A stretch of 44,441 nucleotides of DNA from a virus (Duplodnaviria > Heunggongvirae > Uroviricota > Caudoviricetes): the IMG/VR virus record IMGVR_UViG_2778261530_000005; one strand, 5' to 3'. The translations under genes and the position numbers were made by a program. Within the stretch, counting starts at the first letter, position 1. Each line of letters begins with the position of its first letter. Of this stretch, positions 42,539-43,044 are shown in pieces. Below the pieces are notes generated by a model, which searched no databases, was not told where the DNA came from, and saw only the letters and a program-made list of their open reading frames with translations.

Positions 42539-42546
42539 TCTCAGGT

Positions 42547-42572
42547 GCCGTCGAAGTGTCGACGGCTTTTAC
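42547..42572 (+). terminator. Rho-independent terminator after the tail-fibre operon
   Basis: GCCGTCGA-AGTG-TCGACGGC hairpin followed by T-rich run. Confidence 0.5.
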
Positions 42573-42669
42573 TTCTTTTTTTGTATTCTATCCAGGCAGA
42601 TAGTTTTTCTTTATCTGTACTGCTGATATCACCAAGCATTAATTCCACAATTCCACCCGCCAGTCAGTT

Positions 42670-43044
42670 GTGACATTATCGGCAGGCGACACACTGGGTG
42701 TCTGGAATGTCGTGCTGGTGGAGGAGTTGCGCGAACGAGGCATCAACTTTCGTAGTCTGACTGATTCAATTGATACCAGCACACCAATGGGACGCTTTTT
42801 CTTCCATGTGATGGGTGCCCTGGCTGAAATGGAACGTGAACTGATTGTTGAACGAACAAAAGCAGGACTGGAAGCTGCTCGCGCACAGGGACGAATTGGG
42901 GGACGTCGTCCCAAACTTACACCAGAACAATGGGCGCAGGCCGGGCGATTAATTGCATCAGGCGTTCCTCGCCAGAAGGTGGCGATCATCTATGATGTTG
43001 GCGTATCGACTTTGTATAAGAAGTTTCCGGTCGGAGATAAATGA
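42670..43044 (+). pseudogene. 5'-truncated Pin/Gin/Hin-family DNA invertase remnant
   Basis: Encodes only the C-terminal part (…ELRERGINFRSLTDSIDTSTPMGRFFFHVMGALAEMERELIVERTKAGLEAARAQGRIGGRRPKLT…) matching the e14 Pin C-terminus from memory; catalytic N-terminus absent, internal deletion, no ATG. Confidence 0.75.

Follow-up and report, generated by a model that had tools for sequence, protein, structure and literature searches.

A probable remnant of a Pin/Gin-type tail-fibre inversion switch in an Escherichia coli prophage between yebY and pphA

The stretch of DNA analysed here (44,441 nucleotides, referred to below as the window) holds an E. coli prophage of about 43 kb, which the RefSeq annotation of the whole stretch places between yebY and pphA. 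According to the same annotation, a tyrosine integrase and an excisionase adjoin yebY at one end of the prophage, and at the other end baseplate, fibre, and tfa (tail-fibre assembly) genes, in that order, are followed by an incomplete recombinase gene beside pphA. Over its final 3.4 kb, the window matches the chromosome of E. coli BCE049 (NZ_CP042250.1), a bovine mastitis isolate, at 100% identity and strain MFDS1022581 at 99.3%. The insertion point is the 3' end of a bidirectional small RNA locus made up of SdsR/RyeB (503-602, plus strand) and SraC/RyeA (462-606, minus strand), and an att-like core of about 32 bp (CGAAnACAGGAATCGTnTTCGGTCTnTTTTTA) occurs twice, at 572-603 and at 43346-43377, the second copy lying between the invertase remnant described below and pphA. 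Prophage regulatory RNAs scored above the Rfam gathering score at 2168-2346, 7868-7919, 15188-15362, and 17455-17653; those found in the window are the RalA antitoxin, DicF, sok, IsrK, and the C4 antisense RNA with its a1/b1 targets.

The tail-fibre gene (41079-42131, plus strand) is an open reading frame of 350 codons with a Pfam Gly_rich_2 match (E = 1.6e-14). Its residues 1-117 form a constant N-terminal part common to relatives, and the remainder is a glycine-rich variable tip. Alignment shows the fibre to be a mosaic, since its N-terminus matches two prophages inserted at the same pphA site, those of strain AH19B041 (L002) and of O55:H7 strain DEC5A (L003), and its C-terminus matches two other loci (L004 and L006). 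The DNA homology to L002 and L003 spans the baseplate genes and the first ~117 fibre codons and ends at 41428, inside a 26-bp crossover site of the pix/gix type at 41404-41429 (CTCTCGAAAACC-TT-GGTTTGGGAGAT). This left crossover site codes for the ENLGLG motif of the fibre at the constant/variable junction, aligns with both inverted-repeat arms of the L002 and L003 switches, and differs from the relatives in its outermost base alone. The search for 26-bp inverted crossover sites that the sequence-only reading of this DNA had proposed as a check returned this one site and no inverted partner. Specifically, it is the sole perfect AAACCNNGGTTT core and the sole good 26-bp match in the window. A AAACCNNGGTTT scan of the window gave, besides the fibre site, two one-mismatch matches that are at chance level and lack flanking half-site similarity; a 26-bp half-site scan of the window gave no further site with fewer than eight mismatches; and an inverted-repeat search of 41000-43100 found no partner for the left site. 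Where an inversion switch has paired inverted crossover sites, the window thus has a single one.

The cassette at 41429-42370, in which the glycine-rich tip is followed by the 5' portion of tfa, is rare, being present in 6 of the 5,426 complete E. coli genomes. Of the four carriers without the window layout, L004 and L006 were inspected (the other two are PEC422 and 730V1), and in both the cassette sits on a different tail module, with an acyltransferase gene directly after it and no invertase. The L004 fibre keeps the ENLGLG crossover-site motif at its junction. In RefSeq (PGAP), only 41079-41433 of the fibre gene is annotated, as “phage tail protein, incomplete, missing C-terminus,” and 41434-42130 is left unannotated; other genomes have annotated full-length homologues of this glycine-rich fibre protein. 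The treatment of the gene as a pseudogene looks like a by-product of the mosaic, which joins a common N-terminus to a rare tip.

Directly after the fibre gene lies tfa (42131-42538, plus strand), which is intact in appearance and in RefSeq (WP_064236832.1), matches Pfam Caudo_TAP (E = 3.5e-22), and is paired with the expressed tip. Matches to it in the phage collection were partial only. A terminator-like hairpin with a T-run follows it at 42547-42566 (plus strand; consensus scan), upstream of the invertase remnant. Overlapping the end of tfa on the minus strand is a 175-bp remnant of a second, inverted tfa gene (tfa', 42510-42684), which comprises its C-terminal ~55 codons and has 91% DNA identity to E. 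coli LF82. The LF82 match (L005, 3467-3641) covers the place where two convergent tfa genes overlap at their 3' ends. In tblastn against residues 78-132 of LF82 Tfa', the remnant contains in-frame stops; two insertions disrupt its frame, namely an 8-bp tandem duplication (AATTCCAC, 42641-42656) and one additional T within the T-run at 42576-42582. As the two add 9 bp in total, the frame is shifted only in the interval between them and is restored beyond it, and the additional T sits in the T-run of the plus-strand hairpin after tfa.

The tfa' stretch is present over at least 80% of its length in 122 genomes. Among the 21 matches listed that contain the complete tfa' stretch and come from genomes other than BCE049 (H22-H42), 20 have it between convergent tfa genes, and one is annotated only as “hypothetical protein”; its span is 132 bp in 20 of these 21 and 134 bp in one, compared with 141 bp in the window. 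Consequently, instead of the two opposed tip-plus-tfa sets of an inversion switch, the window holds one such set and the 175-bp, frame-broken 3' end of a second tfa, in agreement with the earlier statement that only one fibre/Tfa set is present.

The incomplete recombinase gene was the starting point of this analysis. The ORF at 42670-43044 (plus strand) is an open frame of 124 codons, and it had been read as the C-terminal portion of a Pin-type invertase that includes the HTH end, lacks the catalytic N-terminus, and carries an internal deletion; all three parts of that reading hold. In Pfam, the Resolvase profile is matched at positions 85-144 of 145 only (E = 5.5e-20), i.e., over the last 60 positions of the catalytic domain, and HTH_7 is complete (profile 1-43 of 45, E = 1.6e-14). 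Compared with the intact 184-aa PinE of L002 and L003, of which residues 1-181 align with the Mu Gin structures 3UJ3/4M6F (E about 1e-92), residues 1-50 are absent, and so are 11 internal residues, approximately 63-73. The invertase pseudogene (42673-43044, plus strand) corresponds to PinE residues 51-62 plus 74-184, that is, to the end of the catalytic domain, helix E, and HTH_7. Outside these gaps the remnant is 97%-98% identical to the intact PinE of L002 and L003 in the protein alignment, and residues 74-184 are identical to those of L002. At the DNA level, homology to L002 and L003 falls into two blocks, 42672-42707 and 42708-44441, between which 33 bp of the intact gene are gone. The second block has 98.8% identity to L002 and the flanking pphA is likewise shared, which establishes descent from pinE.

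The two gaps fall on the catalytic residues. Since intact PinE aligns residue for residue with the Mu Gin structures, the catalytic Ser9 (motif VRVSTNDQ) can be placed within the absent residues 1-50, and the in-frame 33-bp deletion between 42707 and 42708 takes out the LDRLGR active-site cluster (Asp64/Arg65/Arg68). Among the features of a serine invertase, the domain with the catalytic serine and the Asp/Arg cluster are missing, and helix E and HTH_7 are present. An intact N-terminus encoded nearby in another frame had been raised as a possibility; tblastn with full-length PinE and with residues 1-75 found no invertase N-terminus elsewhere in the 44-kb window in six frames (other matches, E > 2). 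RefSeq labels the remnant “recombinase family protein, incomplete, missing N-terminus.” No microhomology flanking the 33-bp deletion was seen on inspection of the sequence.

The relatives at the same pphA site, both with an intact 184-aa pinE, indicate what the region once contained. In L003, a fibre gene (3078-3788, plus) and tfa (3785-4204, plus) are followed by tfaE (4176-4778, minus), an inverted fibre C-terminus (4778-5323, minus), and pinE (5353-5907, plus). Of the two inverted repeats with the core AAACC-TT-GGTTTGGGAGAAG, one falls within the fibre gene (3410-3429) and the other a short way upstream of pinE (5272-5291); L002 has the same inverted repeats at equivalent positions. The P/G/C segments of e14, Mu, and P1 have this classic layout. 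That these same-site relatives hold a full switch with inverted crossover sites, while in the window the left site stands alone, bears out the proposal that the region is a decayed inversion switch.

Synthetic inverted-state junctions built from L003 occur in other genomes. The left junction is contiguous in 61 genomes, the one carrier inspected (O55:H7 CB9615) having it in a related prophage at another locus, and the right junction is contiguous in 26, the one inspected having an e14-like backbone. Across genomes, then, the L003 cassettes are found in either orientation with respect to fibre/pin, as expected of the Pin/Gin switch family, but on different prophage backbones; both orientations within a single prophage lineage were sought and not found. 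Two orientation states on different backbones would support cassette mobility rather than give direct proof of flipping.

The boundary between tfa' and pin preserves the trace of how the switch region was shortened. In overlapping BLAST alignments, tfa' homology reaches 42684 and pin homology begins at 42672, so that the two overlap by 13 bp (GACATTATCGGCA, 42672-42684), a sequence common to the tfa' reference and pin codons 50-55. In LF82 tfa', its antisense reading encodes ADNVT; side by side, pin codons 50-55 contain it in full in L002 and L003 and with 12 of 13 bases in LF82 pin. The presence of the 13-bp sequence at the junction, and in both genes of intact relatives, points to a simple deletion between short direct repeats. 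A deletion between these repeats recreates the window junction exactly. The deletion would measure about 0.8 kb in an LF82-like arrangement, and the window is about 1.2 kb shorter than L003 in the switch region. The reconstruction draws on relatives rather than on the parent, with a tfa' reference (LF82) that is only 91% identical; no direct ancestor with the exact tip/tfa/tfa' combination and an intact pin was found, nor a genome with the glycine-rich tip plus an intact pin (L004 and L006 inspected).

The same junction accounts for the apparent start of the ORF. The GTG at 42670 is a by-product of the deletion junction (TTGTGACATT), where the intact gene reads AGGACATT, and true pin homology starts at 42672/42673. 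As a result, the bounds given by the sequence-only reading need a partial correction: the plus-strand ORF exists, but its GTG is an accident of the junction, and the interval 42540-42670 ahead of it is not blank but holds the minus-strand tfa' remnant.

With regard to expression, a consensus scan of the plus strand from the hairpin to 42670 found nothing that resembles a promoter, and no AGGAG-like ribosome-binding sequence was seen by eye just upstream of the GTG. The remnant is probably silent, since it lies behind a terminator-like hairpin and has no promoter-like site of its own. These observations weigh on the suggestion that the 124-aa ORF encodes a functional, domesticated protein, in which an HTH plus helix-E fragment would bind crossover sites or act as a dominant-negative poison of Pin-family invertases. 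It is true that all 124 codons are open, that both deletions preserve the frame, and that HTH_7 is complete. Moreover, an 85-bp query from the pin remnant matches two places in the BCE049 chromosome, which implies at least one more Pin-family gene outside the window, so that a partner invertase may exist. On the other hand, the start codon arose by chance at a junction that no AGGAG-like sequence is seen to precede, and the hairpin stands ahead of an ORF with no promoter-like site. The allele is also confined to two genomes. BCE049 and MFDS1022581 are the only two of 5,426 complete E. coli genomes that have the deletions, both of them together; metagenome contigs yielded no match to the tfa'/pin junction pattern, and species-representative genomes yielded none to the junction of the 33-bp deletion. 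Finally, the retained part is nearly identical to intact, functional pinE alleles, which implies that the event is recent and gives no sign of selection on the fragment. We therefore regard a domesticated protein as very unlikely; nothing in the comparisons made here supports a DNA-binding or dominant-negative role for the remnant.

Granting that the gene is dead, one may ask whether slippage at short repeats made the larger deletion or whether the invertase itself did so by site-specific recombination, either between directly oriented crossover sites or at a pseudo-site. Serine invertases do occasionally use secondary sites, as is generally known. However, the junction GACATTATCGGCA is unlike the crossover core AAACC-NN-GGTTT, it lies inside the pin coding sequence and coincides exactly with the 13-bp repeat of both parental genes, and LF82, L002, and L003 have no crossover-like site at the matching tfa'/pin positions. 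An invertase-made deletion is accordingly more remote still, and deletion at the direct repeat is the reading that we retain. As for an assembly or sequencing artefact, i.e., a collapsed or mis-joined invertible region, segments bounded by inverted repeats can confuse assemblers, but the probability of such an error is close to nil, because two complete genomes that come from different sources and were sequenced independently (BCE049 and MFDS1022581, at the identities given above over 3.4 kb) have the identical layout, with the junction outside the inverted repeats and the 33-bp deletion common to both.

Altogether, these results make it very probable that the region once held a Pin/Gin-type tail-fibre inversion switch and that two deletions have wrecked it. 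In the ancestor, PinE would have flipped a segment of about 1.8 kb flanked by two inverted 26-bp crossover sites, each flip joining the constant fibre N-terminus to one of two tip-plus-chaperone cassettes. A single deletion would then have joined the middle of tfa', the inverted chaperone gene, to pin at about codon 51, at the 13-bp direct repeat, most likely through replication slippage or another RecA-independent deletion at short homology. Such an event would have cost the switch its right crossover site and its alternative fibre tip, together with the 5' portion of tfa'. The upstream region of pin, with the promoter, would have gone as well, and so would the first 150 bp of the gene, in which the Ser9 codon lies. 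The second, separate deletion of 33 bp would have taken Asp64/Arg65/Arg68 in frame. In Gin, Cin, and Hin, a Fis-dependent enhancer lies near one crossover site, in the 5' part of the invertase gene. For Hin, the enhancer is about 100 bp from a hix site (PMC3798978). If the enhancer position is assumed from these systems, the Fis enhancer of the present switch would have been lost with the first 150 bp of pin. The leftover polypeptide could bind DNA at most and is probably silent. We infer that the fibre is now permanently fused to its glycine-rich tip, which leads to the prediction of a prophage with a single, fixed receptor specificity.

The orphan crossover site (41404-41429) might conceivably still serve as a substrate in trans for a Pin-family invertase elsewhere in the genome. 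This is proposed on the basis of the second pin-like place in BCE049 and by analogy with PinQ, which acts in trans on the e14 P segment (PMC12529663), and we consider it unlikely. If it were true, fibre tips could be swapped between prophages or large chromosomal inversions could arise, and the “dead” switch would still belong to a network that shuffles fibre tips across the genome.

The status of the gene as a partial recombinase is already recorded in RefSeq, and what is described here is ordinary prophage decay; the analysis adds a reconstruction of how the deletion arose at the 13-bp repeat, an identity for the tfa' remnant, and the finding that an orphan crossover site has survived. The importance of the locus beyond annotation is slight. 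It is a clean, fully reconstructable case of the death of a host-range switch. The prophage may also be less defective than its annotation suggests, since the fibre that RefSeq truncates has an open ORF of 350 codons.

Among known systems, the closest comparison is with the Pin/P-segment of e14 in K-12 (pinE, stfE/tfaE, stfP/tfaP). Over the 53 bp compared, the retained pin does not differ from K-12 pinE (100% identity), the intact orthologues in L002 and L003 bear the name pinE in RefSeq, and these intact relatives share with e14 a constant fibre part, two opposed tip-plus-tfa cassettes, and an invertase just outside the segment. Unlike e14, the window has an invertase without residues 1-50 and 63-73, and its right crossover site and second cassette are deleted; in addition, its phage has a DUF2612/baseplate-J myovirus-type tail and lies at the sdsR/pphA locus, whereas e14 lies at icd. 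The Mu Gin/G-segment and P1 Cin/C-segment systems resemble it in that the relatives' PinE matches Mu Gin and that the core AAACC-NN-GGTTT is of the gix/cix/hix type. Both of those systems are functional, whereas in the window copy the catalytic serine and the Asp/Arg cluster are gone, as are one crossover site and the 5' stretch of the gene that houses the Fis enhancer in those systems. The K-12 orphan invertases PinR (Rac) and PinQ (Qin) are likewise parts of decayed fibre-inversion modules in cryptic prophages. There, however, the invertase is kept and its own invertible segment is gone, whereas the window has kept the fibre and one site, and its invertase is dead. Judged on these comparisons, the locus is by descent a pinE gene and a switch of the P-segment type, and by function it lacks the features that define an active one, namely the catalytic serine, the Asp/Arg cluster, paired crossover sites, and dual cassettes.
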